From: Spirochaetes bacterium ADurb.Bin133
Lineage (GTDB): Bacteria; Spirochaetota; GWE2-31-10; MWDO01
Direction of reading: 5' to 3'
Length of the DNA: 64,000 nucleotides
Assembly (NCBI GenBank): GCA_002070605.1
Contig: MWDO01000001.1
Coordinates: forward strand, 24,886 to 88,885
The notes beneath the pieces are model-generated. The model was not told the DNA's origin, made no database searches, and worked only from the letters and a program-made list of their open reading frames with translations. This document shows, piece after piece, positions 8,651 to 52,682 of this stretch (position 1 is its first letter; each line of letters begins with the position of its first letter). Both the position numbers and the translations under genes were made by a program.

Positions 8651-8700
8651 ACCCGTCGATTTTTTGGGGAAACAAATTGACACATATGCGTCGAATTTAT
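8651..8700 (+). repeat. Solo left end of the MITE-like CATATG repeat family
   Basis: cccgtcgattttttggggaaacaaattgacacatatgcgtcgaattt matches the left terminal repeat of the full 21775-22012 element. Confidence 0.6.
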
Positions 8701-8732
8701 TTCCTTCCCCCCAAAATACCGACGGAGATCTT

Positions 8733-21774: not shown

Positions 21775-22012
21775 GTTCGTCGGTTTTTTTGACACATATG
21801 CGTCGATTTCTATCGCAGGGCAATTTAACGCATATGTTGCGTTTTTTCATCGGGGAGCGACGCGGCGGCTATGAGGCGCATATGCGTCGATTTCTATCAG
21901 GGAGCGCCGCGTCGCATATGCGTATTTGGGGGCGGCTTCTTAAAATGACACATATGGAGCTAAAAATAAAATTCGACGCATATGGGATGTCGTCAAATCC
22001 CAAAAAACCGAC
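21775..22012. mobile_element. Full-length MITE-like element of the CATATG-palindrome family, with imperfect terminal inverted repeats of about 35 bp
   Basis: Left end cgtcggtttttttgacacatatgcgtcgatttc. Right end tcgacgcatatggg...caaatcccaaaaaaccgacggg. Five internal CATATG palindromic units. It lies between convergent genes. The track ORF 21789..22049 is an artefact of this element. Confidence 0.6.
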
Positions 22013-22013
22013 G

Positions 22014-22068
22014 GGTACTAAAAAAATAGCGACGAGAAATCCCGCTTAACGCGAGGCGCTCGTCGCTA
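22014..22068 (-). terminator. Rho-independent terminator of pfp
   Basis: 10-bp stem tagcgacgag / ctcgtcgcta, with the plus-strand A-run aaaaaaa forming the minus-strand U-tract after the stem. Confidence 0.55.
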
Positions 22069-30470: not shown

Positions 30471-30486
30471 ATTGTCGAAAAATATT

Positions 30487-30562
30487 GTCCTACGCGGACA
30501 GCGCAAAGGCGCTTCGCCCTTGACCCGTATATTGAAATCGACGCATATGTGTCAATTTTTTA
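30487..30562. repeat. Left direct repeat (about 70 bp) bounding the TA islet; member of the CATATG repeat family
   Basis: gtcctacgcggacagcgcaaaggcgcttcgcccttgacccgtatattgaaatcgacgcatatgtgtcaa is about 94% identical to 32226-32294. Confidence 0.8.
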
Positions 30563-30605
30563 TTTTTTAGCGCGTTGTCGTCTCTTACATTACAAGTTAA
30601 CTATA

Positions 30606-31028
30606 TTAATCCCAAAATATATTTTCTACTTTATATATATTTGATAGGTAATCCCTGCATTTGCTTATTATCATATTCGCGTCATTAAAACAGCTATTAG
30701 CCTGTTCATATTTGATATTACTTTCGATATCATAATCGCAGGATTGTCTTAAACGAAATAATCTTTCTATCATCTTATTAAAGTCTTTTGGAAAAATATT
30801 GGTAAAAATATATTCCTTATTAAAAGCGCCTATTACCTGATTATGCGAAGAAAAAGTCAAATTCTTAGTAAATAAGACGGCCGATATAATGTGAAATATA
30901 GCGTAATACGACCGAGAAATTGAATCTTCATATAATTTATTATCAAGATTAACTTTGGCGGCAATTAGTTTTTCTTTTGATTTCAAAATCATCATTCTTA
31001 CAAATTTAATGTCGGGCAGAATACTCAT
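30606..31028 (-). CDS. HEPN-domain protein (toxin partner of the MNT-HEPN pair)
   Basis: 140 aa with N-terminal SRSYYAIFHIISAVL and C-terminal RLRQSCDYD...EQANSCFNDA, a HEPN-like layout. It overlaps the upstream MNT gene by 4 nt. Confidence 0.6.
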   Translation of the reverse strand: MSILPDIKFVRMMILKSKEKLIAAKVNLDNKLYEDSISRSYYAIFHIISAVLFTKNLTFSSHNQVIGAFNKEYIFTNIFPKDFNKMIERLFRLRQSCDYDIESNIKYEQANSCFNDANMIISKCRDYLSNIYKVENIFWD

Positions 31029-31342
31029 AGTTCTATTCCATACTTGATAATATTTATACCTATCGGGATTTCTTTCTTAAATTCCCACTCTTTTTCATCC
31101 CAGACTATCGGCCCAATTAATTTACTGTACTTAGTTAAAATATTTCCGCCGACGGTATCTACGATATCTTCTATTTCATCGTTTCTTTTATCAACAATTA
31201 TCGCAAAATCATAATCCGACCATTCATTAAAATTTCCTCTGGCTCTAGAACCGAAAAGTATTATTTTTTTTAGGCGATCTTTCAAGCGGCGCTTTATCTC
31301 TTTTTGATATTCATTGATTATTTTATCGCGAACAATCAACAT
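31025..31342 (-). CDS. Minimal nucleotidyltransferase (MNT antitoxin)
   Basis: ILFGSRARGNFNEWSDYDFAIIV, the GS...DxD polymerase-beta-type NTase motif. Confidence 0.8.
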   Translation of the reverse strand: MLIVRDKIINEYQKEIKRRLKDRLKKIILFGSRARGNFNEWSDYDFAIIVDKRNDEIEDIVDTVGGNILTKYSKLIGPIVWDEKEWEFKKEIPIGINIIKYGIEL

Positions 31343-31457
31343 AACTTTTCCCTTTTTTTATAGCATATTGTCGTTATATTATTGCCAATTTTAATATTAT
31401 TATTAATTTAATACTTTTAAACAAGAATATCAATAAAATTTACTCCAAAAATAGTAT

Positions 31458-31598
31458 CCCGTCAGTTTTTTGGGGAATAGAAAATATCTGTCCCATATGC
31501 GGCATTTTTATTTTTGACACATATGCGTCGGACGCGCGCGGCAATTGTCTCAGAAAATTTAACGCATATGGGCTATTTACATAAAATTTATGACAGTT
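31458..31598. repeat. CATATG-family repeat element with left terminal repeat plus internal module C
   Basis: cccgtcagttttttgggg...ttgacacatatgcgtcggacgcgcgcggcaattgtctcagaaaatttaacgcatatgggctatttacataaaatttatgacag. The module also occurs at 32295-32350 and 38556-38632. Confidence 0.7.
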
Positions 31599-31801
31599 TC
31601 CTTAATTTGATTAATTTTCTCCAAACCTTCTAAATAACATACAATAGCTTCATTAGCATTTTTTATCGCATCGTCTAAATTATCGCCTTGAGTAAAGCAT
31701 CCGTCCAAAGCCGGCGCCGTAACATTGTATCCCCCGTCTTCATCCTTTTCTAAAACAATATTAAATTTCATATTCAATACCTCGCAGTTAATATAATACA
31801 A
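31577..31801 (-). CDS. HicB-like (UPF0150) antitoxin-fold protein, with no HicA partner detectable
   Basis: FNIVLEKDEDGGYNVTAPALDGCFTQGDNLDDAIKNANEAIVCYLEGL is the classic HicB/UPF0150 motif. Its last 8 codons are encoded by the repeat element. I found no hicA-like ORF in either flank. Confidence 0.65.
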   Translation of the reverse strand: MYYINCEVLNMKFNIVLEKDEDGGYNVTAPALDGCFTQGDNLDDAIKNANEAIVCYLEGLEKINQIKETVINFM

Positions 31802-31953
31802 TATCCCAAAAAAATCAAGTTAGATATAAGATTAGCGAGAAATATAACGCGCCATTATTGTAGCGCCTGTCAAAATTTGAAATTAACGCATATGGGGTTT
31901 TTGGTAAAACGCCGGAATTGCCGGGACTAAAGCTGAAGTATCAAAAAAATAAT

Positions 31954-32169
31954 TCAAATTCTATCCTCTCTTTCGGTTATAACCTCATTAGACCATGAGT
32001 CTTTAATACCCGATAAAAGAGAGTGAATTTCATTAATAGATTTATTATTCTTTTTTTGGCTTATCTTTTTCTTGTTACTCTTTAGCAACAGTATATTTTC
32101 ATAAACCAAGGAAAGTAAATTCTCATCTAAACTATAAATCTCATTTATAATTTTTTCTTTAAGAACCAT
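31954..32169 (-). CDS. Small hypothetical protein, possibly a DUF2281-like antitoxin
   Basis: 71 aa, MVLKEKIINEIYSLDENLLSLVYENILLLKSNKK. The resemblance to DUF2281 is weak. Confidence 0.3.
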   Translation of the reverse strand: MVLKEKIINEIYSLDENLLSLVYENILLLKSNKKKISQKKNNKSINEIHSLLSGIKDSWSNEVITEREDRI

Positions 32170-32225
32170 AATTTCCCACCTCTTGCATTAATTATACCCA
32201 AAAACAAAATTAAAGTCAAGAACTT

Positions 32226-32352
32226 GTCCTACGCGGACAGCGCAAGGGCGAAACGCCCTTGACCCGTATATTGAAATCGACGCATATGTGTCAATTTTTC
32301 ATCGAGGCGCATTGCGGCAATTGTCTCAGAAAATTTGACACATATGCGTCCC
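32226..32352. repeat. Right direct repeat of the TA islet plus module C of the CATATG family
   Basis: Direct repeat gtcctacgcggacagcgcaagggcgaaacgccc...gtgtcaa, followed by tcatcgaggcgcattgcggcaattgtctcagaaaatttgacacatatgcgtcc. Confidence 0.8.
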
Positions 32353-32559
32353 CTTGTTTACAGCCACTTATCTTCAATTTGACAATGATCTTTTATCCAA
32401 CAGTATTTACATAAACGAAAAGCCTTATCCTGAGTATTTTTATTATCTTCACTTTCATCTCTTCCTTTTTAGTTTTTAAAACGTCAAATGCGTTTTTCAA
32501 ATTCTAAGTTAGCCATCTTTTCTCCTTAATAAAATATAAATATGTTTATATGCTTCCCC

Positions 32560-32596
32560 ATACCCGGAAGCGACGCTTCAGGGTATGGGGGCTATA
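32560..32596 (-). terminator. GC-rich hairpin immediately 3' of the 1168-aa lipoprotein gene (terminator-like, no clear U-tract)
   Basis: ccccatacccggaagcg-a-cgcttcagggtatgggg, a 17-bp stem with one mismatch. Confidence 0.4.
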
Positions 32597-32602
32597 TAAC
32601 CC

Positions 32603-35600
32603 TTACTTTACCTCGCCGGTCGATATATCTATCGCCGCTATTCTGCCTCTAATCTTACCCCCTATAGTAGTAAAATAACCGCCAACATAGACGTTACTTC
32701 CAGAGACAGCCAAGGTATAAACTACGCCGCTAGCGTTTGGATTCCAATCCGTCGCTAAACCGGTAGTTATATCTATAGCCGCTATTCTACTTCTCGTCTG
32801 ACCCCCTATAGTAGTAAACCAGCCGCCCACATAGACGTTACTACCCGACGCAGCCAAGGTAGAAACTGTCCCATCAGCGTTGGGATTCCAATCCGTCGCT
32901 AAACCGGTCGATATATCTATAGCCGCTATATTACTCCTACTCTTACTCCCTATCGTAGTAAAATCGCCGCCCACATAGACGTTACTACCAGATACAGCCA
33001 AGGTAATAACTTCACCATTAGCGCTTGGATTCCAATCCGTCGCCAAACCGGTAGTTATATCTATAGCCGCTATATAATTCCTACTCTGGCCCCCTATAGC
33101 AGGAAACCAGCCGCCGACATAGACGTTACTACCCGATACAGCCAAGGTATTAATTGTATAGATAGCGTTTGGATTCCAATCCGTCGCTAAACCGGTAGTT
33201 ATATCTATAGCGGCTATATAATTCCTACTCTTACCCCCTATAGCAGTAAAATCGCCGCCGACATAGACGTTACTTCCAGACACAGCCAAGGTATTAACAC
33301 TAGTATCGTGGTTGTCGCCGCTAGCGTTTGGATTCCAATCCGTCGCCAAACCGGTCGATATATCTATAGCCGCTATATTACTCCTACTCTTACCCCCTAT
33401 AGCAGTAAAATGGCCGCCGACATAGACGTTACTACCCGATACAGCCAAGGTAGAAACGCTAGCATAATCGTCGCTACTAGCGTTGGGATCCCAATCCGTC
33501 GCTAAACCGGTAGTGATATCTATAGCGGCTATATTACTCCTACTCTGGCCCCCTATCGTAATAAAACTACCGCCGACATAGACGTTACTACCAGATACAG
33601 CCAAGGTATTAACGTAAGCATGATCGCCGCTAGCGTTTGGATCCCAATCCGTCGCCAAACCGGTAGTTATATCTATAGCCGCTATATTTCTCCTACTCTT
33701 ACCCCCTATCGAGTCAAAATTACCGCCGACATAGACGTTACTTCCGGACACAGCCAAGGTATAAACGTGAGCATAATAATCGCCGCTAGCGTCGGGATTC
33801 CAATCCGTCGCTAAGCCCGTCGTTATATCTATAGCGGCTATATAATTCCTACTCTTACCCCCTATAGTAGTAAAATCTCCGCCGACATAGACGTTACTAC
33901 CCGACGCAGCCAAGGTATAAACGTAATAGCTAGCGTTTGGATTCCAATCCGTCGCCAAACCGGTAGTTATATCTATAGCCGCTATTCTATTCCTCGCCTT
34001 ACCCCCTATCGAGGTAAAATAACCGCCGACATAGACGTTACTACCCGATACAGCTAATGCCCTAACCGCCCTGTCAGCGTTTGGATTCCAATCCGTCGCC
34101 AAACCGGTAGTTATATCTATAGCCGCTATTCTATTCCTCGCCTTACCCCCTATCGAGGTAAAATAACCGCCGACATAGACGTTATTTCCGGACACAGCCA
34201 AGGTATAAACTTCGCCGTTAACGTTGGGATTCCAATCCCTAACCGAGCCGTCGGAGTTTATCCACGCTATTCTATTCCTTGTATATGCGCCGACTTGCGT
34301 AAATCCGCCTCCTATAATCCAGCCGCCGCCTCCGTCTGATATTACGCGCCTAATTGAGCCGTTAACTGCGGGGAAATTTGCATCCTCATAATCGCTCGAC
34401 ATATCGAGTAACGCGCCTTGAGTAAATCTGCCGACTCGACTAAAACTCCCCCCTATATACAATATCCCGTCTTTCTGAACCATACAATTAATATTTCCAT
34501 CCGTTCCGATACCGTCTTTGCCGATATTTACTACCGTAGGATCTGTATCCCCCTGTTTCATATCGTAACAAGCCGTATTTCCAGCCGCATCTTTTACTAT
34601 CGCGTTAAAGTAATACGACTTTTTTTCAGATAACCCCGTCATATTATAACTTGTATTGGACGACCACTCCATAGCGACTATCCCGTTTGTCTCGCAACCG
34701 GTAACATCCCAGAGATTATCCGTCGTAGAGTAGTAGAGTTTATACTGTAGCGGTCCGTTATCGTCTGTAGCTTCGCCCCAGTTTACGGTAAAACCGCTTG
34801 TCGTCGTATTTGAAAACCATATAGCGCCGCCAATAACCGGCGGAGTAGTTTCTAAAACAAATTTATTTGAAGTAGCTTTTGATTCGTTACCCTTACCGTC
34901 GATAGCGTATATATGAAGGTAATAATCGCCGTCTCCGGTAGATCGACAAAGAGTATCTCCCGACGTAAATTGCGTCCAGGTCCCTTCGGCTGGAAAAGTC
35001 GCCGATTGAGTCCACTGATATTTGGGATAGCCCTCCGCCATACCGCTCTGATCGGTTACCGTTACGTCAGTAGTTTGCTCTTTTTGAGGAGCAACATTGC
35101 CGTTTCTACCAAAGGTTATTGAAGGAGGGTCGCATTTAGCGCTCGCTTCATTACTATACGCCGAACTCCCAAAACTATTTACCGCTTTTACTCTATAGTA
35201 ATATGTCGTCCCGATTACCGCCGTCGTATCGTCAAAAGTAGTCGTATTTGCGCTTAACGGCGTTGCGTCCGTCCCGCCGAGAGCAGAATACCCGCTTCCC
35301 GAACTCTCGCTTCTCTCCACTACAAAGCCCGTCTCTACTTTAGAGTTATCCGTCCAGTCGAGGACTATCTTGTTGTATCCCTCCGCCGCAGTCAAACCCG
35401 AAGGGGCGTTCGGAGCTTTGTCAAAATCGTTAGTAGTTAAAGTTATAGTTTTCGTAGTCGAATGATAGTCGTAAATATGAACGCTTTCAATTACCGAAGA
35501 CAACATTTTACCATTTTTCATCAACTTGAATATATATTTATAAAATCCGGACGAGACCGAGCCGTTTGCGTAATTAACGCTCGACCCGCCTGTAAAAATA

Positions 35601-36109
35601 TCAATAGTCGGATCGTTATTTATCTGTAATATTACCGAATCGACAGATACTATCGGATCCCAATCGATCGTTAAATCTACGCTTCCATAGCCAATTTGTT
35701 GATAATGGAGCGCGATATTTAAATCGGTAGTCGCATTTTCTATAATAGACGCGGAAGCGCTTCCTTTTGCTATCGTATTATTATTTGAGTCTTTTCCAAG
35801 AACCGTCAGGCTCCAGCTTCCAACAAGAAGATTTTCAATCTTTTTGGTCGTTCCTAATATGTTTGCAACGTTTATCGTATTGCCGTCGGGACCGTCGCCT
35901 GTCAAATCATAATGGTCTATACTTAAAAAATCAGGCGCTATCGTTCTAGAATTCTTTGTAATATTTATGTTAAGAGAGCCGTATTTTTCTGAAGTATTTT
36001 TAGAACCGTCGGAATTACCAACCTGCGGTATAATATTTTGAAGACAGTTTAAACCTAAAAATGTAGATACAATAATTATAAGATAAATCATTTTATTTGT
36101 TTTTTTCAT
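32603..36109 (-). CDS. Large surface lipoprotein with an FN3-like domain and 12 tandem roughly 48-aa beta-propeller (DUF5122-like) repeats
   Basis: Lipobox FLGLNC. An FN3-like segment (GLTAAEGYNKIVLDWTDNSKVETGFVVERS). The C-terminal half is made of repeats of the form VYVGGxFTxIGGKSRNxIAAIDITTGLATDWNPNA. Confidence 0.7.
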   Translation of the reverse strand: MKKTNKMIYLIIIVSTFLGLNCLQNIIPQVGNSDGSKNTSEKYGSLNINITKNSRTIAPDFLSIDHYDLTGDGPDGNTINVANILGTTKKIENLLVGSWSLTVLGKDSNNNTIAKGSASASIIENATTDLNIALHYQQIGYGSVDLTIDWDPIVSVDSVILQINNDPTIDIFTGGSSVNYANGSVSSGFYKYIFKLMKNGKMLSSVIESVHIYDYHSTTKTITLTTNDFDKAPNAPSGLTAAEGYNKIVLDWTDNSKVETGFVVERSESSGSGYSALGGTDATPLSANTTTFDDTTAVIGTTYYYRVKAVNSFGSSAYSNEASAKCDPPSITFGRNGNVAPQKEQTTDVTVTDQSGMAEGYPKYQWTQSATFPAEGTWTQFTSGDTLCRSTGDGDYYLHIYAIDGKGNESKATSNKFVLETTPPVIGGAIWFSNTTTSGFTVNWGEATDDNGPLQYKLYYSTTDNLWDVTGCETNGIVAMEWSSNTSYNMTGLSEKKSYYFNAIVKDAAGNTACYDMKQGDTDPTVVNIGKDGIGTDGNINCMVQKDGILYIGGSFSRVGRFTQGALLDMSSDYEDANFPAVNGSIRRVISDGGGGWIIGGGFTQVGAYTRNRIAWINSDGSVRDWNPNVNGEVYTLAVSGNNVYVGGYFTSIGGKARNRIAAIDITTGLATDWNPNADRAVRALAVSGSNVYVGGYFTSIGGKARNRIAAIDITTGLATDWNPNASYYVYTLAASGSNVYVGGDFTTIGGKSRNYIAAIDITTGLATDWNPDASGDYYAHVYTLAVSGSNVYVGGNFDSIGGKSRRNIAAIDITTGLATDWDPNASGDHAYVNTLAVSGSNVYVGGSFITIGGQSRSNIAAIDITTGLATDWDPNASSDDYASVSTLAVSGSNVYVGGHFTAIGGKSRSNIAAIDISTGLATDWNPNASGDNHDTSVNTLAVSGSNVYVGGDFTAIGGKSRNYIAAIDITTGLATDWNPNAIYTINTLAVSGSNVYVGGWFPAIGGQSRNYIAAIDITTGLATDWNPSANGEVITLAVSGSNVYVGGDFTTIGSKSRSNIAAIDISTGLATDWNPNADGTVSTLAASGSNVYVGGWFTTIGGQTRSRIAAIDITTGLATDWNPNASGVVYTLAVSGSNVYVGGYFTTIGGKIRGRIAAIDISTGEVK
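32620..34200. repeat. Tandem array of about 144-bp units encoding the beta-propeller blades
   Basis: The block ccaatccgtcgc(t/c)aaaccggt(a/c)g(t/a)tatatctatagc(c/g)gctat recurs about every 140-160 bp. Confidence 0.8.
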
Positions 36110-36124
36110 TTTTTACTCCCTTAT

Positions 36125-37666
36125 CTAATTAATAATAGTAAAAATAATGGACGCCGAATACATAATGCCGTTTTTATATGCAAAGAGAGTCAGATTATAT
36201 ACTCCCGGCTCGTAAAGAGCGCTATTTATTACGCAAGTATTTCCGGTATTTCCCAAAGAATCTCCTTCAAGATACCACTCCCATTGAGTCGCTCCATCTA
36301 ATACGGCGGAGACATCAAGAGTCTCGCCTTGCGATTTATCTAATTGATTATCAAACTCTCCGAAATCTATTACAGGATTATCGGGAGTAACAAGTTCGAT
36401 CGTAATATTAAAGTTACCCTTATCTATATTCGTTATGGTATAACTTACCTCGCCGCTCCAGTTGCCGACCGCGTCTTGCGCCTTTGCGTAGATTGTAGTA
36501 TCTTCGCTTACCGTAAAGGGAGCGGTATACGATTGATACTCGCCCGCTCCGATTTTATAGCGCTTTACCGCCGAGTCCGCTGAAAATGTTATAGTTACCG
36601 TTACGACTCCCGTTGTCGGAGTAGTAGGGCTTATTGAAATAGTCGGATTAGCCGGCGGAGTTTTGTCAATATTAGCGACCGTCGCCGTTACGCTACCCGC
36701 ATTTCCGGCGGCGTCCTTAAACTCAAATGTGAAACTTCCGTTAACGGTAAAGGTATAACTATTTGAGCCGCCGTTGTTCGTTATGGTTACAGGCTCGTTC
36801 GGAGTTATCGTAGCGACTACGTTCCCGTTAGTCGGAGCAGTCGTCGAATACGCTACCGTCGCAGTAGGAGCAGTTTTATCAATATTAGTGACCGTCGCCG
36901 TTGCGCTACCCGCATTTCCGGCGGCGTCCTTAAACTCAAATGTGAAACTTTCGTTAGCGGTAAAGGTATAACTATTTGAGCCGCCGTTGTTCGTTATGGT
37001 TACAGGCTCGCTAGCCGTCATAGTAGCGATTACGTTCCCGTTAGTCGGAGCGGTCGTCGAATACGCTACCGTCGCAGTAGGAGCAGTCGTATCTATATTA
37101 CTTATAGTTAAACTTCTTTCGTTACTCCAGTTGCCGACCGCGTCTTGCGCCTTTGCGTAGATAGTAGTATTCTCGCTTACCGTAAAGGGAGCGGTATACG
37201 ATTGATATCCGCCCGCTCCGATTTTATAGCGCTTTACCGCCGAGTCCGCTGAAAATGTTATAGTTACCGTTACGACTCCCGTTGTCGGAGTAGTAGGGCT
37301 TATTGAAATAGTCGGATTAGCCGGCGGAGTTTTGTCAATATTAGCGACCGTCGCCGTTACGCTACCCGCATTTCCGGCGGCGTCCTTAAACTCAAATGTG
37401 AAACTTCCGTTAGCGGTAAAGGTATAACTATTTGAGCCGCCGTTGTTCGTTATGGTTACAGGCTCGCTAGCCGTCATAGTAGCGATTACGTTCCCGTTAG
37501 TCGGAGCGGTCGTCGAATACTCCACCGTCGCAGTAGGAGGAGTCGTATCAGACTCCCCGCCTCTGTCCCCGCTATATATGACTTCTTCGGAGCAGTTAAT
37601 AGAGAAAAACAGAACGCCGATTAACGATAATAAAATAAATAGTGGAAACAAATTTTTCTTAAGCAT
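36125..37666 (-). CDS. Surface lipoprotein with repeated Ig-like and CHB_HEX_C-like domains
   Basis: Lipobox FSINC. The unit TPPTATVEYSTTAPTNGNV...NIDKT occurs three times. The unit RYKIGAGGYQSYTAPFTVSENTTIYAKAQDAVGNWS (chitobiase C-terminal-like) occurs twice. DNA direct repeats of about 330 bp lie at 36460-36800 and 37130-37465. Confidence 0.65.
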   Translation of the reverse strand: MLKKNLFPLFILLSLIGVLFFSINCSEEVIYSGDRGGESDTTPPTATVEYSTTAPTNGNVIATMTASEPVTITNNGGSNSYTFTANGSFTFEFKDAAGNAGSVTATVANIDKTPPANPTISISPTTPTTGVVTVTITFSADSAVKRYKIGAGGYQSYTAPFTVSENTTIYAKAQDAVGNWSNERSLTISNIDTTAPTATVAYSTTAPTNGNVIATMTASEPVTITNNGGSNSYTFTANESFTFEFKDAAGNAGSATATVTNIDKTAPTATVAYSTTAPTNGNVVATITPNEPVTITNNGGSNSYTFTVNGSFTFEFKDAAGNAGSVTATVANIDKTPPANPTISISPTTPTTGVVTVTITFSADSAVKRYKIGAGEYQSYTAPFTVSEDTTIYAKAQDAVGNWSGEVSYTITNIDKGNFNITIELVTPDNPVIDFGEFDNQLDKSQGETLDVSAVLDGATQWEWYLEGDSLGNTGNTCVINSALYEPGVYNLTLFAYKNGIMYSASIIFTIIN

Positions 37667-37864: not shown

Positions 37865-37990
37865 TATAAATATTGTAACCCGTCGGTTTTTTTAATTTGA
37901 CACATATGGGGCTTTGTTTTAACGCATATGCGACGATTTGCTCTTAACATCATATGTGTCAATTTTATTTTTTCATCAGGGCGCGTCGGG
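37865..37990. repeat. CATATG-family element with left terminal repeat plus module E
   Basis: cccgtcggtttttttaatttgacacatatggggctttgttttaacgcatatgcgacgatttgctcttaacatcatatgtgtcaattttatttttt. Module E recurs at 39205-39265. Confidence 0.7.
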
Positions 37991-38084
37991 GCGTATAAAA
38001 AATACCTTGAAATCAATATTTATTTTTGATATATTTGAATTTAGAATAAGTATCGGGAGTTTTATTTTGACAACCTCAGAAATT

Positions 38085-38378
38085 ATGATAAAAATTGCTA
38101 ATTCTTTCAAAAATGAGATCTCCGATTTTAACGGTCTATACCTTTACGGTTCCAGAGCAAAACAAATGAATAGTATTCTAAGCGATTACGATGTTATTTT
38201 TCTCTCCAAAAGAAAATTATTATCAGATGAAAAAAGCGCTATATATAAAATTGTCGGTAAAATAGAATTTGAGATGGATATTTTTATCGATATTCAAATC
38301 TTAACAATGGAAGAATTACTAAAAAATAGATTTTTCTATGAAGAGGTAACTAAATATGGACAATTTTATGCAGCTTGA
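38085..38378 (+). CDS. Minimal nucleotidyltransferase (MNT), second copy
   Basis: LYLYGSRAKQMNSILSDYDVIFL NTase motif. I chose an internal ATG at 38085. The track ORF start at 37938 lies inside the repeat element. Confidence 0.65.
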   Translation: MIKIANSFKNEISDFNGLYLYGSRAKQMNSILSDYDVIFLSKRKLLSDEKSAIYKIVGKIEFEMDIFIDIQILTMEELLKNRFFYEEVTKYGQFYAA

Positions 38379-38379
38379 A

Positions 38380-38530
38380 AAGAAGCTTTTGAAAACAGAC
38401 AGGGAGCCGATTATTCGATATTCGTCAGTTTTTCAAAGGAAGAAGTTGTTAAAAATTATAATAATGCAAAATTATTTATTGAAGAAGTAGAAATCTATAT
38501 ATTGAAGAAGTTGGAAAAAAGCTCTAATTA
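38380..38530 (+). pseudogene. Truncated or frameshifted HEPN remnant downstream of the MNT gene
   Basis: In a different frame, about 50 codons read EAFENRQGADYSIFVSFSKEEVVKNYNNAKLFIEEVEIYILKK. This is a HEPN C-terminal half (R...DY) with no N-terminal half. Confidence 0.45.
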
Positions 38531-38555
38531 GAATATTCAAAACGGGAATTCCCAC

Positions 38556-38640
38556 TTTTATCGAGGCGCATTGCGGCAATTGTCTCAGAAAATTTAACGC
38601 ATATGCGCTATTTGCATAAAATTTATGACAGTCTCCCAAT
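38556..38640. repeat. Module C copy of the CATATG family
   Basis: atcgaggcgcattgcggcaattgtctcagaaaatttaacgcatatgcgctatttgcataaaatttatgacagt. Confidence 0.8.
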
Positions 38641-38667
38641 ACGTTGTTATTATCTTATTTTTATTAT

Positions 38668-38937
38668 TTAAACGCTTTTATAAATATTTCCCCGAAAGTC
38701 AATATCAACAATTATTAATTCTTCGCCTTTTTGAGAAATAACAAAAAGAACTCTTATTTTTCCAATTCTTACTCTATAAGTATCGTCCTCGCCGATAATC
38801 TTTATAATATCAAGATTACAATCCGGAAAATCAACTAACAATTTTAATTTTAATTTGATTTTCTCTCTTTTAACGCTATCGATTTTCTTTAGAAATTTTT
38901 CAGCTTTATTTGATAGTAAAATATTAAACATCGTCAA
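38668..38937 (-). CDS. RelE/ParE-family type II toxin
   Basis: C-terminal TYRVRIGKIRVLFVISQKGEELIIVDIDFRGNIY, a RelE/ParE signature. Confidence 0.7.
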   Translation of the reverse strand: MTMFNILLSNKAEKFLKKIDSVKREKIKLKLKLLVDFPDCNLDIIKIIGEDDTYRVRIGKIRVLFVISQKGEELIIVDIDFRGNIYKSV

Positions 38938-39097
38938 TACTTTTTAATATTTTAGTTTTATCTTCAACTATCAATTTTTTTATTTTTTTTACTTCAAGAT
39001 ATTCATTTTTAGTGAGAATTGAATCGTTCAATAAATTTATTACAAAATCTAACTTTTTATTTATATCTGAAATTTCGGCGTTCATAAATTTCTCCAT
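38924..39097 (-). CDS. Putative cognate antitoxin (58 aa), unannotated and overlapping the toxin start by about 14 nt
   Basis: My own translation: MEKFMNAEISDINKKLDFVINLLNDSILTKNEYLEVKKIKKLIVEDKTKILKSIDDV. It is below the 60-aa ORF-track cutoff. Its position and overlap are classic for type II antitoxins. Confidence 0.45.
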   Translation of the reverse strand: MEKFMNAEISDINKKLDFVINLLNDSILTKNEYLEVKKIKKLIVEDKTKILKSIDDV

Positions 39098-39204
39098 AAA
39101 GACTGCTATTTCACAAATATAATATTTTTTTATCCAATATTCAATAAGTTTGTATAAATTTTCAAATTACCATTTACGAGGGGTAAATGGATAACATAAG
39201 CGTT

Positions 39205-39405
39205 GTTTTAACGCATATGCGACGATTCGCTCTTAACATCATATGTGTCAATTTTATTTTTTTGACACATATGGGCTATTCTTTTATCAGGGAGCGGCTT
39301 ACATGCAGCTCCATATGTGTCAAATTTTTAAAGCAGTAGAGCGCGCCCCGCTGTTTGTCGGTATCATATGTGTCAAATTTTTATTCCCAAAAAACCGGCG
39401 GGATA
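39205..39405. repeat. Composite CATATG-family element (module E, three TTGACACATATG units and a right terminal repeat)
   Basis: Six CATATG cores in about 190 bp. It ends in ttcccaaaaaaccggcggg, the reverse complement of the left terminal repeat cccgccggttttttggg. Confidence 0.75.
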
Positions 39406-45798: not shown

Positions 45799-45817
45799 GA
45801 GAACTCAACGCGGCGCG

Positions 45818-45991: not shown

Positions 45992-46774
45992 ATGAATTAT
46001 TGGACTAAATTAAGTATAGATTTTGCGAATCAACGAAATTACTTAGATGAACTTTTTCAAATTTATCCAACTATTCCAGAAGGCATTCGAGATATAGATA
46101 AAGAAATTTGGAATAAAATTGAAAAGAGTTTTGAGAAAAAAGACAATATCGAGTTAATAAAAATGTTACTGGGCTTAAATTTATTTCCAATTAAAGATTC
46201 TTATGTTGCATATCTTAAAAGAGACCTGTCTTCAATAGAAAGAAATCCAAATACTATTAATAGACTTTGTGGAAGATTATACGAGATGGGTTTAGATAAA
46301 ATTTATGAAAAATGTTCAGAACCAAAGGAAACAAATCGTCAAATTGGACCATTATTTAAAAGATGGTTAAAAAAAGGTTCTTTAGGAATTGCCCCGGTAA
46401 ATATTTTTGATTTTGAAAAATCTAAAAACAATGCTATACTCGACGCTAGCGATGCAGAAATGCAATCTTGGTGTAAAAAAAACCTTAATTATAACAGAGA
46501 TAAAGGGTTAGATTTTGTTGGAAGATTTAATGGAAAGTATATAATTGGCGAAGCAAAATTTTTAACAGATTTTGGCGGACATCAAAATACGCAGTTTGCA
46601 GATGCAATAAGTACAATAAAATCTAAAAATGTTAAAGCAATAAAAATTGCTATTCTCGATGGAGTTTTATATATCAAGGGTGGTAATAAAATGTATCGAG
46701 ATGTAACAGAGACTTACAAAGAAGAAAACATATTAAGCGCCTTACTTTTAAGGGATTTCATATACTCAATATAA
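45992..46774 (+). CDS. Putative type II restriction endonuclease (cognate of the downstream methyltransferase)
   Basis: PD-(D/E)xK-like DFVGRFNGKYIIGEAKF. Its stop is 6 nt before the methyltransferase start. AT-rich and CpG-poor compared with the backbone. Confidence 0.45.
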   Translation: MNYWTKLSIDFANQRNYLDELFQIYPTIPEGIRDIDKEIWNKIEKSFEKKDNIELIKMLLGLNLFPIKDSYVAYLKRDLSSIERNPNTINRLCGRLYEMGLDKIYEKCSEPKETNRQIGPLFKRWLKKGSLGIAPVNIFDFEKSKNNAILDASDAEMQSWCKKNLNYNRDKGLDFVGRFNGKYIIGEAKFLTDFGGHQNTQFADAISTIKSKNVKAIKIAILDGVLYIKGGNKMYRDVTETYKEENILSALLLRDFIYSI

Positions 46775-46786
46775 GGAGATTTGATT

Positions 46787-47971
46787 ATGGAACTTAATTA
46801 TAAGGGTAAAAAAGATATAAATGATATAGTTAATAATACTCCGCCTGCCTTTTTAGAAGGAATTTGGAATGAATCGTCAAACAAATTAATAAAAGGAAAT
46901 AATTTACACACATTAAAAGCATTAATAACTAATTATAACTTAAAAGGAAAAATTGACTTAATTTATATTGACCCGCCATTTTCGACAAATACCGTATTTA
47001 CAATTGGAGAAGAAAGAGTAAGTACTATCAGTTCAAAAAAAGATGATGAAATTGCATATTCTGATAATTTAAAGGGAAACGAATTCCTCGAGTTTTTACG
47101 GGAACGATTAATATTAGCAAGAGAATTGATGTCAGACAAATCTTCTATATATTTACATATTGATTATAAAATCGGTCATTATGTTAAAATTATTATGGAT
47201 GAGATATTTGGAGTTGAAAATTTTAGAAATGATATTACAAGAATAAAATGTAATCCTAAAAATTTTGACCGTAAAGCTTATGGGAATATAAAAGATTTAA
47301 TTTTATTTTATTCAAAAACAAAAGATTTGATTTGGAATGACCCAAAAACAATTTTTACTGAAGATGATATTAATAGATTATTCAAGAAAGTTGATGAAAA
47401 TGGACGTCGTTATACTACAATTCCTTTACATGCGCCAGGCGAAACAAAAAATGGCGTTACATCGCAAGAATTTAGAGGTATTAAACCTCCAGCAGGCAGG
47501 CATTGGAGATGTGATCCTAAAATTTTAGAAGAACTTGATTTACAAGGATTAATTGAATGGTCAAGTAACGGCGTTCCTAGAAAAAAAATATTTGCAGATG
47601 AGCAAGATGGTAAAAAACTTCAAGATATATGGGATTTTAAAGATTATCAATATCCTGTTTATCCGACTGAAAAGAATTTAGATTTATTAAAAACTATTAT
47701 TTCAGCATCTTCTAATGAAAAAAGTATTGTTATGGATTTTTTTTGCGGCTCCGGTACTACATTAATTGCAAGCCAAGAACTTGGTCGTACTTGGATTGGT
47801 ATTGATCAATCAGAAAAGGCAATTGAAGTTACTAAAAAAAAGATTAATGCAATTCCTAATAGTCTTTTTTCATCAGTTAATTATGATTATTTATATGAAA
47901 AAAATATTGAGGAATATACGCCCACGCCTTCCTTGGCTTCGGCTTTAAATATCGCTAGGGTTGGAAATTAA
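46787..47971 (+). CDS. Type II N4/N6 DNA methyltransferase (beta-class)
   Basis: Motif IV DLIYIDPPFSTN lies near the N-terminus and motif I FFCGSGTT near the C-terminus. Confidence 0.8.
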   Translation: MELNYKGKKDINDIVNNTPPAFLEGIWNESSNKLIKGNNLHTLKALITNYNLKGKIDLIYIDPPFSTNTVFTIGEERVSTISSKKDDEIAYSDNLKGNEFLEFLRERLILARELMSDKSSIYLHIDYKIGHYVKIIMDEIFGVENFRNDITRIKCNPKNFDRKAYGNIKDLILFYSKTKDLIWNDPKTIFTEDDINRLFKKVDENGRRYTTIPLHAPGETKNGVTSQEFRGIKPPAGRHWRCDPKILEELDLQGLIEWSSNGVPRKKIFADEQDGKKLQDIWDFKDYQYPVYPTEKNLDLLKTIISASSNEKSIVMDFFCGSGTTLIASQELGRTWIGIDQSEKAIEVTKKKINAIPNSLFSSVNYDYLYEKNIEEYTPTPSLASALNIARVGN

Positions 47972-48080: not shown

Positions 48081-48258
48081 AATTGTAAGATTGTTTAATA
48101 AATGATAGGATTGTTTAATAAACAAGTAAAAATTATTTGAAATTATGCGATATTATAGATTGCGCTTCGGATATGTTTATCGAGAGAGCGAAAGAACTTA
48201 AAAATGCAACTCTCCGTTTCAAAAAAGCGGGGACTTCTTTTTTATTTAAGGAAAAGTT

Positions 48259-49251
48259 ATGAAAATAAAACTTTTTTTGCCTGCGATATTAATTTTTGTA
48301 TTGTGTTGCTGTTCCTGTTCCAACGAAATTGATCCGAATTATTTACCGTCGTTTGACGGCATAGAGGTAGATGAAAATACTATTTTCTTATCTAACATAA
48401 AAGACGATAAAAAACATATCATATATGCGGTTGATACGAGCAATGATAAAATATTGTATAAATACGAATTTAAAAATTTGATAATTTACGACATGGAATA
48501 CGACGCGTCGTTTGATACGAATCCTTATATTGTATTGCTCAATGGAAAAGCGATAAAATTAAATACAAAAACAGGGTTATGCGAGAAGTTTAGTATTAAT
48601 TTTACTCCCGAGCGCGTTGAAGTTGTTGGCGACAAACTCTGGATAACTCCAACAGGCGTTGGATTTGAAGGATCGCCTAAAGAATACTATATTTATGACT
48701 CTAAAACAAATAATACTGAATATATTACATTACCGGAAGGTTTGTTTCGTGGCGATTGGACATTTATTAATAACTGTTACTACTTAGCTCTTTCAATTAG
48801 TTCTTATGGCGACATATTATATAATTTAACTGAAAAAAAGAATATAGGCGGGAATTTTTTTAATAGAAATCATTCATTTTATAAATTGTCTGGAAATTAT
48901 TTGCAAGATTCATTTATCTCATCAGCGTCTGATTATGAAGAGGTATATTATATAAATTCTTTTGAACCTTTTAATTATAAATCTCTTTATAAAAGCGATA
49001 AATATTTGTTGTTAATTAATGTTTTTGAAAAAAATAATTATTCATATTTTGTTGAAATAGGAAATAATTATTTAAATATTACAAAAAGGGATATAATAAA
49101 CAACTATATAGAACTAAAGAATATACAAATATATGATTCTTGGAATTATCTTACCTATTGCAAAAACGGTTATATCTGGTGCGTAAGCGAAGATAACGAC
49201 GGGGCGTATAAGGTCGATATGGACGATTTGAGCTATGAGATAATAAATTGA
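48259..49251 (+). CDS. Variable surface lipoprotein, cassette copy 1
   Basis: The lipoprotein signal MKIKLFLPAILIFVLCCCSCSNE is identical to copy 2. The C-terminus YCKNGYIWCVSEDNDGAYKVDMDDLSYEIIN is also identical. The middle is divergent. About 45 bp of the 5' UTR match copy 2. Confidence 0.6.
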   Translation: MKIKLFLPAILIFVLCCCSCSNEIDPNYLPSFDGIEVDENTIFLSNIKDDKKHIIYAVDTSNDKILYKYEFKNLIIYDMEYDASFDTNPYIVLLNGKAIKLNTKTGLCEKFSINFTPERVEVVGDKLWITPTGVGFEGSPKEYYIYDSKTNNTEYITLPEGLFRGDWTFINNCYYLALSISSYGDILYNLTEKKNIGGNFFNRNHSFYKLSGNYLQDSFISSASDYEEVYYINSFEPFNYKSLYKSDKYLLLINVFEKNNYSYFVEIGNNYLNITKRDIINNYIELKNIQIYDSWNYLTYCKNGYIWCVSEDNDGAYKVDMDDLSYEIIN

Positions 49252-49955
49252 AAAAAACAATGTTTTTTTTTATTACATTTTTAATTTTTATTAATAACAA
49301 TAAAATAACTTCAAGCGGTATTACTCAGAATTTTAGCTTCGCTTCAGGGTTGTCTCTTAATTCTTTATTGATTCTTGAACCAAGTTATCAGGAGCCAAAA
49401 TATATAGAATATCATGTTTTGGTACATTTAACGATAAAATTTGACTATTTGTTTTTTAAAGAAGTCAGGAATAATTATAAAATCGGATTCGGTCTGGCGC
49501 TTGGAGACTCAATTAATGTATCGGCTATGGGGGGATACGGAGGAATCGGAACATATATAACTTCGGCGATTTTACTAAGCGGGCTGCTACCGGGATTTAT
49601 TTATACATTTTTTCAACAACGTTGTTTTATGAATAGACTATTTCAGAAAATTACATTTGTAAATTTGATAGGCAGCGATTATGAAAATAAATATGCTCTA
49701 ATTGAAGTTGGTCTTAATGCGGAATTTGTTTTCTTTTTTTATGAATTTCAGTTTTTTATCTCCCCCAATTTTTTTATAGGATTTTTGAAATATACGACTT
49801 CGTGGATGTTTTTAAACGTTAAAGGCGAAATTATAAATATCAGTCATATTATCGGCGGTTTTTTTGAGTTTGGTATAAATGTAACGCCTTATAGAAATTA
49901 TGACAATTTTTTTATAAATATTGGCGTTGAATATCGCGTAGGGAGTATAAAATAA
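49248..49955 (+). CDS. Cassette partner, copy 1: secreted beta-rich protein, possibly a small OMP
   Basis: Signal peptide. Translationally coupled to the upstream gene. Paralogous to 52683..53324 (shared motifs FSFA, YALIEVGL and EYRVG). Confidence 0.5.
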   Translation: MKKTMFFFITFLIFINNNKITSSGITQNFSFASGLSLNSLLILEPSYQEPKYIEYHVLVHLTIKFDYLFFKEVRNNYKIGFGLALGDSINVSAMGGYGGIGTYITSAILLSGLLPGFIYTFFQQRCFMNRLFQKITFVNLIGSDYENKYALIEVGLNAEFVFFFYEFQFFISPNFFIGFLKYTTSWMFLNVKGEIINISHIIGGFFEFGINVTPYRNYDNFFINIGVEYRVGSIK

Positions 49956-50052: not shown

Positions 50053-51618
50053 ATGATTCAAAAAGTGTCAGTAGTCTTTGCTCTTTTGCTATTATTGGGA
50101 TGTAGCAACCCCGCTTTGCTGGTTGACGTAAAAAATGATAGCGCCGTTGGTATATTAAAAATGAGGAATATACCGAAAAGGTCGGAAGTTATAAAAGATG
50201 AAAAAAATGTCGTAAGCGACAGGAAAGCGGTTTTAACCGGAGCGGATCTCTATCTTAATTCGAAATTTGTCAGATCTATAGTTCCCGCGTCGAGATTTCC
50301 CGGGATTACAAGAGGGAACGACGTTACTGAAGAGGGCGGAGAGTCTCTTGAGTATGTTGACGACGTTATGATAGACTCGTTTGTCGAGGAGATTTTTACT
50401 AAAGCGACCGATGAAGAAAAAGAGTATTTTATGGAAAATATCGACGAAATCTCGTTGGAATTTAATATAGTTGTCAAATACGACTCGACGGACGACGCTT
50501 CGGATGATATGTTTATCGAGGGAGCGAAAGAGCTTAACGCGGCTCAGGACGAGTTGTACAACAGTTTGCAGTTAAACGAGGTTGCGATTAAAGAAGAAAC
50601 GAACAGAAGCGGCTATGGCGCGACTCTGAATCCTCAAAAATACAGAGCGCTTAACAAACATAACAGATACAGAAATTCAAACGAAAGAGTCGTAAAAGCG
50701 TGGGAACTGGCAAATTATTTTTTAATGAACGGCGATATTGAAGAAGTTGAAAATATAGCTGAGATGTTTGGAGTAGATATAGATATGGATAAATTAAAAG
50801 CTCTAAACATACAGAGGAGCAAAAGTAGAAGCGGAACTCCGTGGTTCGCGTATAAAAGCGAATTACCCGGAGCTGTTGAATGGTTTAAGAAATATGGGCA
50901 AAATGGCGACATAGTATCAAGGTGCTTAGAGTGGGCATGTATATATGGATGGTTTGATCATACTGGAATGTTTAGTAGAGATAGATTTTACAATGTGAGA
51001 GATAGCAACCGACTTTCAACTGCTTCCAGATGTATTCTCGCTTCATATCCTACGATGGCATACCCAATACAGGAGGATAGAAAAGGCGAGAGAGCTGAAT
51101 ACGCCTCTTACGAACCGCTTGCTAATTTTACCGACGCTTACAGGATTACCGTAAACAGAGCGAGCAAAGATAAAGGGCAAAAAGCGCTTGATAAAGCTGA
51201 GTCTCATTTTTACGGGGACGGAAGTAAGCGGGATTATCATAAATGGTGCGACGGAACATATACGTACTGGATAGGGTGGTATAGTTTTACGGGCTATTAC
51301 AATTGCGTATCTGAAACGTTGCGAACCACCGATAGGTCAAATAAAGACCCTCAAAATGTAAATTACTGTAGTTATATAGCGTGGTATGGCTATAAATACG
51401 GAGCGGATATAGACCTCGACTCGGACAATTATTCAAGAAAAAGTACCGGTAATATGAAAGTTCCGGACGATATTGTTAACTCGAAAAATGATCAATACGC
51501 TGACTGTTGGGTGTGGGTAAAGAAAAACGGCGCATGCGGAGAGTATACCGCGTTGAGTTACGTAAGTAAGAAGGTATATAGCGCTAAGACTATATCTGTT
51601 TTTTCGGCTACAAAGTGA
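50053..51618 (+). CDS. Large hypothetical lipoprotein with an acidic N-terminal half and a Cys/Trp/Tyr-rich C-terminal half
   Basis: Lipobox LLGCS. The C-terminal region reads WCDGTYTYWIGWYSFTGYYNC...CWVWVKKNGACGEY. No known domain. Confidence 0.5.
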   Translation: MIQKVSVVFALLLLLGCSNPALLVDVKNDSAVGILKMRNIPKRSEVIKDEKNVVSDRKAVLTGADLYLNSKFVRSIVPASRFPGITRGNDVTEEGGESLEYVDDVMIDSFVEEIFTKATDEEKEYFMENIDEISLEFNIVVKYDSTDDASDDMFIEGAKELNAAQDELYNSLQLNEVAIKEETNRSGYGATLNPQKYRALNKHNRYRNSNERVVKAWELANYFLMNGDIEEVENIAEMFGVDIDMDKLKALNIQRSKSRSGTPWFAYKSELPGAVEWFKKYGQNGDIVSRCLEWACIYGWFDHTGMFSRDRFYNVRDSNRLSTASRCILASYPTMAYPIQEDRKGERAEYASYEPLANFTDAYRITVNRASKDKGQKALDKAESHFYGDGSKRDYHKWCDGTYTYWIGWYSFTGYYNCVSETLRTTDRSNKDPQNVNYCSYIAWYGYKYGADIDLDSDNYSRKSTGNMKVPDDIVNSKNDQYADCWVWVKKNGACGEYTALSYVSKKVYSAKTISVFSATK

Positions 51619-51676
51619 TAAATGTAAGTCCTCGTTTCAAAAAAACGGGGACTTCTTTTTTATTTAAGGAAAAGTT

Positions 51677-52663: not shown

Positions 52664-52682
52664 AATATTTTAAGAGATTAAA

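Follow-up and report, generated by a model that had tools for sequence, protein, structure and literature searches.

Chromosomal integron arrays and CALINs include the VCR arrays of Vibrio, which are rich in toxin–antitoxin (TA) cassettes. The locus described here, which lies in a 64-kb window (the whole stretch of DNA that was analyzed, 64,000 nucleotides in length), resembles these arrays in that small cassettes of the same orientation, many of them TA, are parted by similar repeats of 35–160 nt and in that the order of the cassettes differs between relatives. Unlike in integron arrays, however, a crude pattern scan of both islets of the window, of the sister-species locus L136 and of locus L038 found no attC-like sites (R'' RYYYAAC ... 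R' GTTRRRY with paired L boxes), none of the genes called in the window encodes an IntI, the cassettes bear their own promoters and the repeats occur genome-wide and also form gene-less tandem arrays. The host is an uncultured anaerobic-digester spirochaete, represented by Spirochaetota MAGs such as ADurb.Bin133.

The pdif (XerC/D) modules of Acinetobacter (PMC6449649, PMC13141974) are small, often encode TA systems, are bounded by short palindromes centred on 6 bp and are shuffled, features that recur here; the palindrome AAATYGACR-CATATG-YGTCRATTT has the dif-like 11-6-11 layout. By contrast, the orientation of the sites at the present locus does not alternate, their sequence is unlike that of known dif sites, and they are chromosomal and exist in hundreds of copies. 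There is also a likeness to the NIME/dRS3 repeats and minimal mobile elements of Neisseria (PMC1797815, PMC3898611), to the REP/BIME of E. coli and to MITEs, all of which share with the repeats found here that they are abundant, modular and intergenic, form arrays, mark sites where genes are present or absent between strains and break assemblies. The sequences are different, however; the repeats here have an invariant 12-mer head and copies of 125–265 nt bounded by terminal inverted repeats (TIRs), and a lineage-specific, multi-copy 171-aa ORF stands in the place of a known transposase.

Table 1 Features of the TA islet, its surroundings and the second islet (window positions).
Feature	Position	Strand	Remarks
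Direct repeat R1	30485..30563	.	79 nt, 94% identical to R2; terminator-like on both strands
HEPN putative toxin, 140 aa, UPF0332/PF05168 type	30606..31028	-	PF05168, E 1.2e-18
MNT nucleotidyltransferase, putative antitoxin, 105 aa	31025..31342	-	PF01909, E 4.6e-11; PF18765, 1.9e-09
Solo left end of MITE-like repeat GTATCCCGTCAGTTTTTTGGGGAATAGAAAATATCTGTCCCATATG	31453..31500	+	Upstream of the MNT-HEPN operon
Repeat modules at the proposed hicB deletion scar	31514..31601	+	Palindromic head TTGACACATATGCGTCG plus 64-nt module
HicB-like antitoxin	31577..31801	-	PF15919, E 1.6e-13, 51.3 bits vs cut-off of 27
Spacer between cassettes	31802..31925	-	Terminator-like module CCCGGCAATTCCGG (~31905-31925) plus TTAACGCATATG unit (31883)
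PIN (VapC-like) toxin gene stub	31926..31957	-	11 codons left (NYFFDTSALV); translation compared with L136 PIN
ORF71, 71-aa putative antitoxin of a PIN toxin probably lost	31954..32169	-	Homologues syntenic with PIN genes
Promoter-like site TTGACT-17-TATAAT for the ORF71 cassette	32191..32219	-	11/12 positions match; conserved in L136
Direct repeat R2	32224..32302	.	Repeat head plus native leader of the ORF71/PIN cassette
72-nt hairpin of two inverted heads	32279..32350	.	-36 kcal/mol, z -7.6
Decayed non-coding stretch	32351..32602	-	Stops in all frames; lipoprotein terminator hairpin at 32556-32590
Second TA islet	37879..39402	.	Inside inverted terminal repeats CCCGTCGGTTTTTTT... and ...AAAAAACCGGCGGG of the same repeat family
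60-nt direct repeats of the second islet	37914-37973 and 39203-39262		98% identical
Solo MNT, second islet	38067-38378	+	
ParE toxin, second islet	38668-38937	-	57-aa ORF upstream at 38924-39097 (-)

Our analysis indicates that the 1.8-kb segment is probably an array of three small TA cassettes that is fixed and has partly decayed, situated at a variable spot directly 3′ of a DUF327 gene (Table 1). The MNT-HEPN cassette is whole and the hicB and ORF71 cassettes are toxin-less. The original prediction of a TA islet is supported, and the islet lies at a break in synteny: the backbone homology to the sister species (86.5% nucleotide identity) stops at 30472, 2 nt past the DUF327 stop codon, and this breakpoint is occupied in the sister species by a copy of a repeat-associated 167-aa gene in place of the islet. 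At the other end, the decayed stretch indicates that variable DNA continues past R2. Repeats of the family had been seen interspersed among the islet genes, and the 12-mer TTGACACATATG indeed occurs 12 times in the window versus 0 expected. Within the spacer, the module CCCGGCAATTCCGG matches AAACCGGCAATTCCCGTTTTGAATAT sites that lie between cassettes in L136. An Rfam search over 29.5–40 kb returned nothing meaningful.

Cassette 1 resembles the HEPN/MNT systems (HepT/MntA, type VII; PMC7641770, PMC11586414, PMC2701414) in forming an MNT-then-HEPN operon with a 4-nt overlap. That the pair is complete, as had been predicted, is supported by significant HMM matches of both proteins (PF05168 and PF01909), and the GS-x10-DxD motif of MNT proteins can be read in the translation (G31-S32-x10-D43-x-D45). 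There are, however, differences from the type VII systems: the islet HEPN is of the PF05168/UPF0332 type and its motif region, R94-Q-S-C-D-Y99, has R-x4-Y for the canonical Rx4-6H RNase motif, while the islet MNT scores 34.6 bits against the MntA equivalog NF047752, under the cut-off of 60. The same R-x4-Y/F is found in the closest solved HEPN homologues, PDB 9xbd and 9xbc (3.5e-20), and the HEPN also matches PDB 2hsb (AF0298). Judging by domains and gene order, cassette 1 most likely works in an HEPN/MNT-like manner, whereby the HEPN RNase would be held inactive by its nucleotidyltransferase partner. The GTATCCCGTCAGTTTTTTGGGGAATAGAAAATATCTGTCCCATATG module upstream of this operon begins complete TIR-bounded copies of the repeat elsewhere (L031 9932, L132 3226) and is also present upstream of another TA operon (L038 9075).

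In cassette 2, the gene that had been assigned a HicB fold retains the HicB N-terminal fold in an HMM search (PF15919); the start used by gene callers gives a 64-aa product. The sister-species locus L136, which has the order terminator module, hicB-hicA, terminator module, ORF71-PIN, terminator module, contains the intact pair, with hicB (616-831) and hicA (828-1043; PF07927) overlapping by 4 nt. Homology to this pair halts inside hicB at 31601, exactly where a repeat module begins, and the islet contains no hicA ORF, in agreement with the original prediction. The islet hicB is without the last 15 codons of its 71-aa L136 homologue. The C-terminus had been thought to be encoded by a repeat, and the 64-nt module (31538-31601; 95% identical to 38573-38636) does contribute the final 8 codons of the truncated gene, the last 25 nt of hicB lying inside it. 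Cassette 2 would thus have begun as hicB-hicA and would have lost the 3′ end of hicB and the whole of hicA by deletion, with the repeat module at the scar. Unlike in HicAB systems, the islet hicB is an orphan and truncated antitoxin gene, its hicA apparently deleted; the C-terminal DNA-binding domain is absent from the islet and sister-species HicB proteins alike.

Synteny supports the antitoxin-like character proposed for ORF71, in cassette 3. A homologue of 82% identity has a 4-nt overlap with a PIN gene, homologues at 41–48% identity also stand before PIN ORFs, and a PIN gene follows the ORF71 homologue in all three contexts (intact in L136, L142 and L140). The DUF2281-like label given to ORF71 had to be dropped: no DUF2281 match, nor a match to any other Pfam or NCBIfam model, was obtained for ORF71 (Pfam E ≤ 10) or for 24 members of its family. 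This family is uncharacterized and has a conserved C-terminal W-S-x-x-[VI]-x3-R-E-D-R. The PIN protein of L136 matches PF01850 at 9.9e-11, and the homology between the two ORF71/PIN cassettes halts at 31926, after 11 PIN codons. Cassette 3 would thus have begun as ORF71-PIN and would have lost the PIN gene beyond codon 11 by an internal deletion. Cassette 3 is like VapBC in that, in relatives, a small upstream antitoxin overlaps the PIN gene by 4 nt, and unlike VapBC in that the ORF71 family has no Pfam model and the PIN gene of the window is cut to 11 codons.

The L136 cassettes are 89–92% identical to those of the window at the nucleotide level and differ from them in order and genomic context. 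Comparison of the sequences argues that the orphan hicB and ORF71 were left behind when parts of complete hicBA and antitoxin-PIN cassettes were deleted. An ancestral state without the toxins is conceivable, but the 11-codon PIN stub and the truncated hicB favour deletion. Taken alone the islet matters little, as clusters of TA genes, antitoxins without a toxin and variable spots flanked by repeats are all frequent; it is an ordinary sort of locus, and it is the repeat family surrounding it that is undescribed. The islet nevertheless illustrates toxin loss cleanly, in that two cassettes seem to have kept the antitoxin and lost the toxin, and, we infer, it fits the idea that orphan antitoxins are retained as protection against related toxins. 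Paralogous HicA and PIN toxins occur in the same genome, examples being the L064 hicA and the L100 PIN.

The direct repeats that bracket the islet, originally given as about 70 bp, proved slightly longer, and R1 meets the backbone 14 nt downstream of the DUF327 stop codon. As had been noticed, R1 and R2 differ mainly by a flipped hairpin, the 19-nt hairpin region being 89% complementary between the copies. Each 79-nt repeat is a composite of ~30 nt of the genome-wide repeat head and ~45 nt of the ORF71/PIN cassette leader; on the minus strand, the head TTGACACATATGCGTCGATTTCAATATAC of R1 precedes ~45 nt in which there are two small GC hairpins. When 841 kb of repeat-bearing contigs were compared, the genome-wide family matched R1 at positions 42-79 only and the left ~45 nt was not found; the 22-nt left part of the repeat has 2 copies in the window versus 0 expected. 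Positions 1-43 of R1 match L136 1162-1204, the ORF71 leader, at 84%, and window positions 32266-31926 match L136 1162-1502 at 88.9%. In the sister species the ORF71/PIN leader stands without the head. Because R1 and R2, unlike the sister species, share the head–leader junction, the copies appear to have arisen by one duplication in this lineage and not by two independent insertions of an interspersed repeat. R1 and R2 each join a copy of the ubiquitous head to the leader of a single cassette and are not a dedicated att site. The palindrome in the repeats, AAATCGACG-CATATG-TGTCAATTT, is laid out as in a tyrosine recombinase core site. Adjoining R2, the 41-nt spacer of the 72-nt hairpin is replaced by 9 nt in strains L001, L002 and L007.

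Cassettes elsewhere in the population show similar surroundings. The second islet of the window, when collapsed on its direct repeat, gives a TIR-bounded sequence of 235 nt, a typical size for the family; a full-length match to this collapsed sequence was not found, and that the islet is an insertion into a MITE is unproven. Other TA cassettes of the same population are bounded by direct repeats of 160, 135 and 37 nt. The cassette with the 135-nt repeats is absent in one sample, where a single repeat copy is left (L066 versus L088); this difference is mosaic, with no clean one-step event. Whole units between heads are replaced from strain to strain. No further cassette arrangements were seen in L137-L139.

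The repeat family itself is noteworthy in that it is very abundant, has an unusually invariant 12-mer head, forms tandem arrays and breaks MAG assemblies. The head, TTGACACATATG, is invariant across hundreds of copies whose bodies vary, and the motif has 749 sites in the 841 kb of related repeat-bearing contigs. Units in the tandem arrays recur every 26, 38 or 47 nt, and terminal inverted repeats were found as ten adjacent pairs spanning 125–265 nt and additionally around window positions 37879-39402. A search for an autonomous element, with long inverted ends around an ORF, yielded no convincing pair. Tied to the repeats is a multi-copy 171-aa protein of the lineage, which had no match in Pfam or PDB, and no recognizable transposase for the family emerged from these comparisons. 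The model of the protein is all-helical with a pLDDT of 53, which is too poor for a fold search, and hence no catalytic fold is claimed. If this protein does mobilize the repeats, they would represent a new kind of small mobile element. The 12-mer TTGACACATATG had no mention in the literature; the 17-mer head gave 8 single chance matches in a genome contig collection, in unrelated taxa only, indicating that the species is absent from that collection. Two candidate roles for modules were considered and rejected. The GAATTCC module is found behind many housekeeping genes and has the look of a general terminator, which speaks against a TA-specific boundary. The head, in which TTGACA might serve as the -35 element of a sigma-70 promoter, lacks a conserved -10 element at suitable spacing, the 26–27-nt units being a possible exception.

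The direct repeats had been taken as a sign of an inserted or excisable cassette. The repeats are indeed true duplicates and the segment lies at a synteny break, while no empty site, recombinase, attC or dedicated att site was found. The islet is present in all 23 contigs read that have an identical DUF327 gene, leaving none with the empty site that had been suggested as a check in related genomes, and the sister species has no synteny there; in the seven contigs compared in detail, the islet is 100% identical over 30471-32294. It is fixed in the sampled population and was not seen to excise. It is therefore unlikely that the 1.74-kb segment as a whole is a single mobile cassette, integrated by site-specific recombination at a 79-bp att-like site and excisable via R1 × R2 by a recombinase encoded elsewhere. 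Such a cassette would suit the near-identical direct repeats, which stem from one composite sequence, and the placement of the segment exactly at the synteny break, but the interior consists of three independent cassettes in unequal decay with family repeats between them, the sister species has these cassettes at a different place and in a different order, and decayed variable DNA runs on past R2. The CATATG palindrome resembles the layout of a tyrosine recombinase core site, yet no integrase, transposase or other recombinase domain was found among the called genes of the 64-kb window, and the islet had no match in plasmid and phage collections. The second islet likewise has its own direct-repeat pair, and empty-site polymorphism was seen for another repeat-flanked TA cassette; repeat-flanked polymorphism elsewhere makes the cassette idea plausible in general, though not established for this islet. 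The segment is more probably a decaying array than one unit.

It is very unlikely that R1 and R2 are simply ordinary members of the interspersed family which flank the TA genes by chance and have nothing to do with them. The right 30 nt of each consists of the ubiquitous head module, repeat clusters fill many intergenic regions beside all kinds of genes, and the 60-nt direct repeat of islet 2 has the usual family architecture (80–87% identical to many loci), but the left 45 nt lie outside the family in the 841 kb and constitute the ORF71 cassette leader, and the junction between head and leader, common to both copies and absent from the sister species, marks them as mutual duplicates. We find it highly improbable, too, that the islets form part of a specialized cassette system like integron arrays or Acinetobacter dif modules, with the head/palindrome or the GAATTCC module as recombination site. 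The invariance of the head over hundreds of variable bodies and the strain differences in whole units between heads would agree with such a system, as would a cassette order that varies between species with the same module between cassettes; against this, site orientations around cassettes follow no rule, the junctions of the polymorphic locus are mosaic and the GAATTCC module, with its generic-terminator look, lies behind many housekeeping genes. Islet 2 is within a TIR-bounded element and a multi-copy 171-aa protein of unassigned family is linked to the repeats, yet the pattern scan found no attC-like R''/R' pairs and the protein is modelled, at low confidence, as all-helical. We regard as quite unlikely the broader possibility that a lineage-specific repeat system, comprising the 12-nt head TTGACACATATG, the TIRs CCCGTCGGTTTTTTGGGG and the 171-aa protein, captures, shuffles and loses TA and other small cassettes as a platform comparable to integrons and dif but unrelated to them, with the 79-nt repeats as its recombination products. 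For the decayed array that we favour, the most likely origin of the present arrangement would be recombination between boundary modules that cassettes and repeats have in common. Such recombination, homologous or based on short homology, may have involved circle integration, unequal exchange and deletion, and the same process would shuffle, add and remove cassettes elsewhere in the genome.

A further difference between related contigs concerns the repeat on its own: one of L030 and L074 has a 118-nt copy, with, in this single case, a possible 10-bp target-site duplication containing 1 mismatch.

Four genes, all on the minus strand, lie between the direct repeats R1 and R2 and make up a ~1.8-kb toxin–antitoxin (TA) islet, which is flanked on the left by an M23 peptidase, bactofilin and DUF327 backbone and on the right by repeat-rich lipoprotein genes of 1168 and 513 aa. 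The bracketing repeats, the overlapping HEPN-MNT pair and the HicB-like gene with a C-terminus supplied by a repeat module had been described in the original prediction, and domain searches bore out the gene assignments. Its DUF2281 label for the 71-aa ORF (ORF71) was not recovered, while its other factual statements held.

Coordinates of islet features, the second islet and copies of the 167–171-aa ORF
Feature	Position	Strand	Details
Direct repeat R1	30485–30563		79 nt, 94% identical to R2
HEPN	30606–31028	-	PF05168, 1.2e-18
MNT	31025–31342	-	PF01909, 4.6e-11; 4-nt overlap with HEPN
HicB-like gene	31577–31801	-	PF15919, 1.6e-13
ORF71	31954–32169	-	no Pfam/NCBIfam match
Direct repeat R2	32224–32302		79 nt, 94% identical to R1
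Second TA islet	37879–39402		between inverted pair of repeat-family ends
167–171-aa ORF copies	L035 4275–4790; L055 10152–10667; L070 4708–5223; L086 1069–1584; others
167–171-aa ORF copies in L008	10569–11072; 1388–1891

ORF71 has a single close relative, P0012 (82% identity), in the sister-species locus L136, where the P0012 gene follows a complete hicB-hicA pair and shares a 4-nt overlap with a 146-aa PIN gene (PF01850, 9.9e-11). A full HMMER scan defined a family of ~71-aa proteins that conserve W-S-x-x-[VI]-x3-R-E-D-R at the C-terminus; none of the members matches DUF2281 or another Pfam family, and two distant ones likewise have PIN-like ORFs downstream. Because P0012 overlaps a PIN gene and these distant relatives precede PIN-like ORFs, ORF71 would be the antitoxin to a PIN toxin, in keeping with the antitoxin-like character first proposed for it. 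The match between window 32266–31926 and L136 1162–1502 (88.9%) stops 28 nt inside the PIN gene, leaving the codons NYFFDTSALV followed directly by a terminator-like module. Similarly, window 31850–31601 matches L136 536–786 (91.6%) and stops 45 nt short of the hicB stop codon, at the exact start of the 64-nt repeat module (31538–31601). Since the L136 matches break off at these points, hicA and the PIN gene appear to have been lost by deletion and hicB to have been truncated, with a new tail from the repeat. The islet comprises three cassettes, with MNT-HEPN alone intact. This pair probably works like HEPN/MNT systems (PMC7641770): the window MNT carries the MNT motif, although it scores under the MntA equivalog cut-off and, unlike in those systems, the HEPN carries R-x4-Y.

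On the gene strand, R1 and R2 read TTGACACATATGCGTCGATTTCAATATAC then GGGTCAAGGGCG...GGACAA. The first part is the head, the conserved start of a genome-wide repeat (the CATATG family), and the second is the ORF71/PIN cassette leader of L136 (1162–1204), located directly upstream of a conserved promoter, TTGACT-17-TATAAT. The leader was not found in 841 kb of other repeat-bearing DNA and in L136 it is present without the head; the left 22 nt of R1/R2 occur only in these two copies in the whole window. As the head–leader junction is common to both, R1 and R2 are duplicates of a single composite sequence that arose in the window's lineage. R1 stops precisely at the would-be promoter start and adjoins the backbone 14 nt past the DUF327 stop codon, and backbone homology to L008, a second sister-species locus (86.5% nt), stops at 30472. 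The repeats differ, as predicted, mainly in a small GC hairpin that is nearer to the reverse complement of the other copy's hairpin.

Many metagenome contigs from digesters and sludge, as well as Spirochaetota MAGs (GCA_029567835.1, GCA_022704815.1), encode an identical DUF327 protein. The islet was present in 23 of 23 contigs read, none of which has an empty site. Across seven compared loci the DNA of 30471–32294 is 100% identical; they differ solely in the spacer of the hairpin to the right of R2, which measures either 41 or 9 nt, and in a few changes beyond it. Searches of plasmid and phage collections returned nothing matching the islet.

The second TA islet, with 60-nt direct repeats of its own that are 98% identical, encodes a ParE with a small upstream ORF and a solo MNT; the latter is followed by a 44-aa overlapping ORF alone, with no recognisable HEPN partner. 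In metagenome loci, ParE/Unstab_antitox, DUF6290/RelE-like, HicB/HicA, RelB/ParE and PIN pairs lie between repeat clusters, and several of these cassettes have direct repeats (160, 135 or 37 nt) on both sides. A 1.2-kb ParE cassette in L088 is missing from L066, where one 135-nt repeat copy remains; the junctions are mosaic. Separately, a variable spot adjoining a PIN gene and tRNA-like sequence (L042 450–3250, L047 5400–6450) holds MNT, 220-aa and 188-aa ORFs in one sample and a 76-aa antitoxin-like ORF in the other.

The original prediction of an inserted or excisable cassette is partly supported. The duplicate repeats and the absence of another cassette from L066 speak for it; the lack of an empty site in the contigs read, and of an integrase or transposase in the 64-kb window, speaks against it. 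The evidence fits recombination through shared modules at a variable intergenic spot, whereby cassettes and repeats would recombine, duplicating a boundary sequence, reshuffling cassettes, deleting toxins and turning over units. Less likely is a dedicated site-specific system: the head is palindromic around CATATG and units are replaced between heads, but no attC-like sites, orientation rule or recombinase were found.

The repeat family and its associated protein are more unusual than the islet. The window has 12 copies of the TTGACACATATG head where 0 are expected (at 8677 and 21789, inside both islets and at islet edges), and a metagenome scan for the head yielded at least 111 stretches, the 841 kb analysed, with 749 motif sites. 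The head is invariant and the following body variable. Tandem arrays have units of ~26, 38 or 47 nt in up to 18 copies, while short copies of 125–265 nt have inverted ends, (GTAT)CCCGTCGGTTTTTTGGGG and CCCCAAAAAACCGACGGG(ATAC). Samples differ in whether they carry one 118-nt copy, a single case that may involve a 10-bp duplication. Arrays at L107 8984–9770, L038 6973–7630 and L056 2908–3448 (up to 18 units, period ~47 nt) differ in copy number between samples, each unit being the invariant head plus a GC-rich variable body ending GATGAAAA. Gene-less TIR-bounded copies lie at window 21778–22015 (~238 nt) and 8652–8730 (~80 nt); the former falls at a contig break in MAG GCA_022704815.1, where JAKJFQ010000002.1 terminates within the adjacent PFK gene. 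The association with TA genes is not exclusive, as many ordinary genes, too, have repeat clusters and a GAATTCC terminator-like module alongside them.

A multi-copy 167–171-aa ORF (MKNKKHLFHFIVSES...) always lies between the head, ~127 nt ahead of its ATG, and the CCCCAAAAAACCGACGGG right end. Clustering at 90% identity divides its copies into >100 groups, several to a MAG and none from outside this Spirochaetota lineage. Neither Pfam nor PDB searches gave a match to the protein, which is predicted with low confidence to be all-helical. The window has no copy; L008 carries a 167-aa homologue at the exact site of the islet between R1 and R2. The protein could be the mover of the repeats, or cargo.

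Elsewhere in the window, the lipoprotein genes (32603–36109 and 36125–37666) contain 144-nt and 213/669-nt internal repeats, and their called lengths vary strongly by sample: the first is 865, 1120, 1168 or 1215 aa long, and the second ranges from 227 to 513 aa. Either the copy number truly varies or the assemblies have collapsed. A restriction-modification pair (45992–47971; Tsp45I-like endonuclease, PF06300, and N6/N4 methyltransferase) occupies a low-GC stretch past oxaloacetate decarboxylase genes. Paralogous gene sets with no assigned function (48195–49955 and 51613–53324) share 88% identity over parts, and a separate 50–90-nt repeat (TTATATAAGTTTTGGGATCGAATATCGCATAGGG), unrelated to the CATATG family, occurs at 45807, 48004, 49910 and 53255. 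The C11 peptidase gene at 53328–54794 is broken into ORFs of 232 and 231 aa, probably by a frameshift or strain difference, as a 206-kb JGI contig (L024) has a single 451-aa gene.
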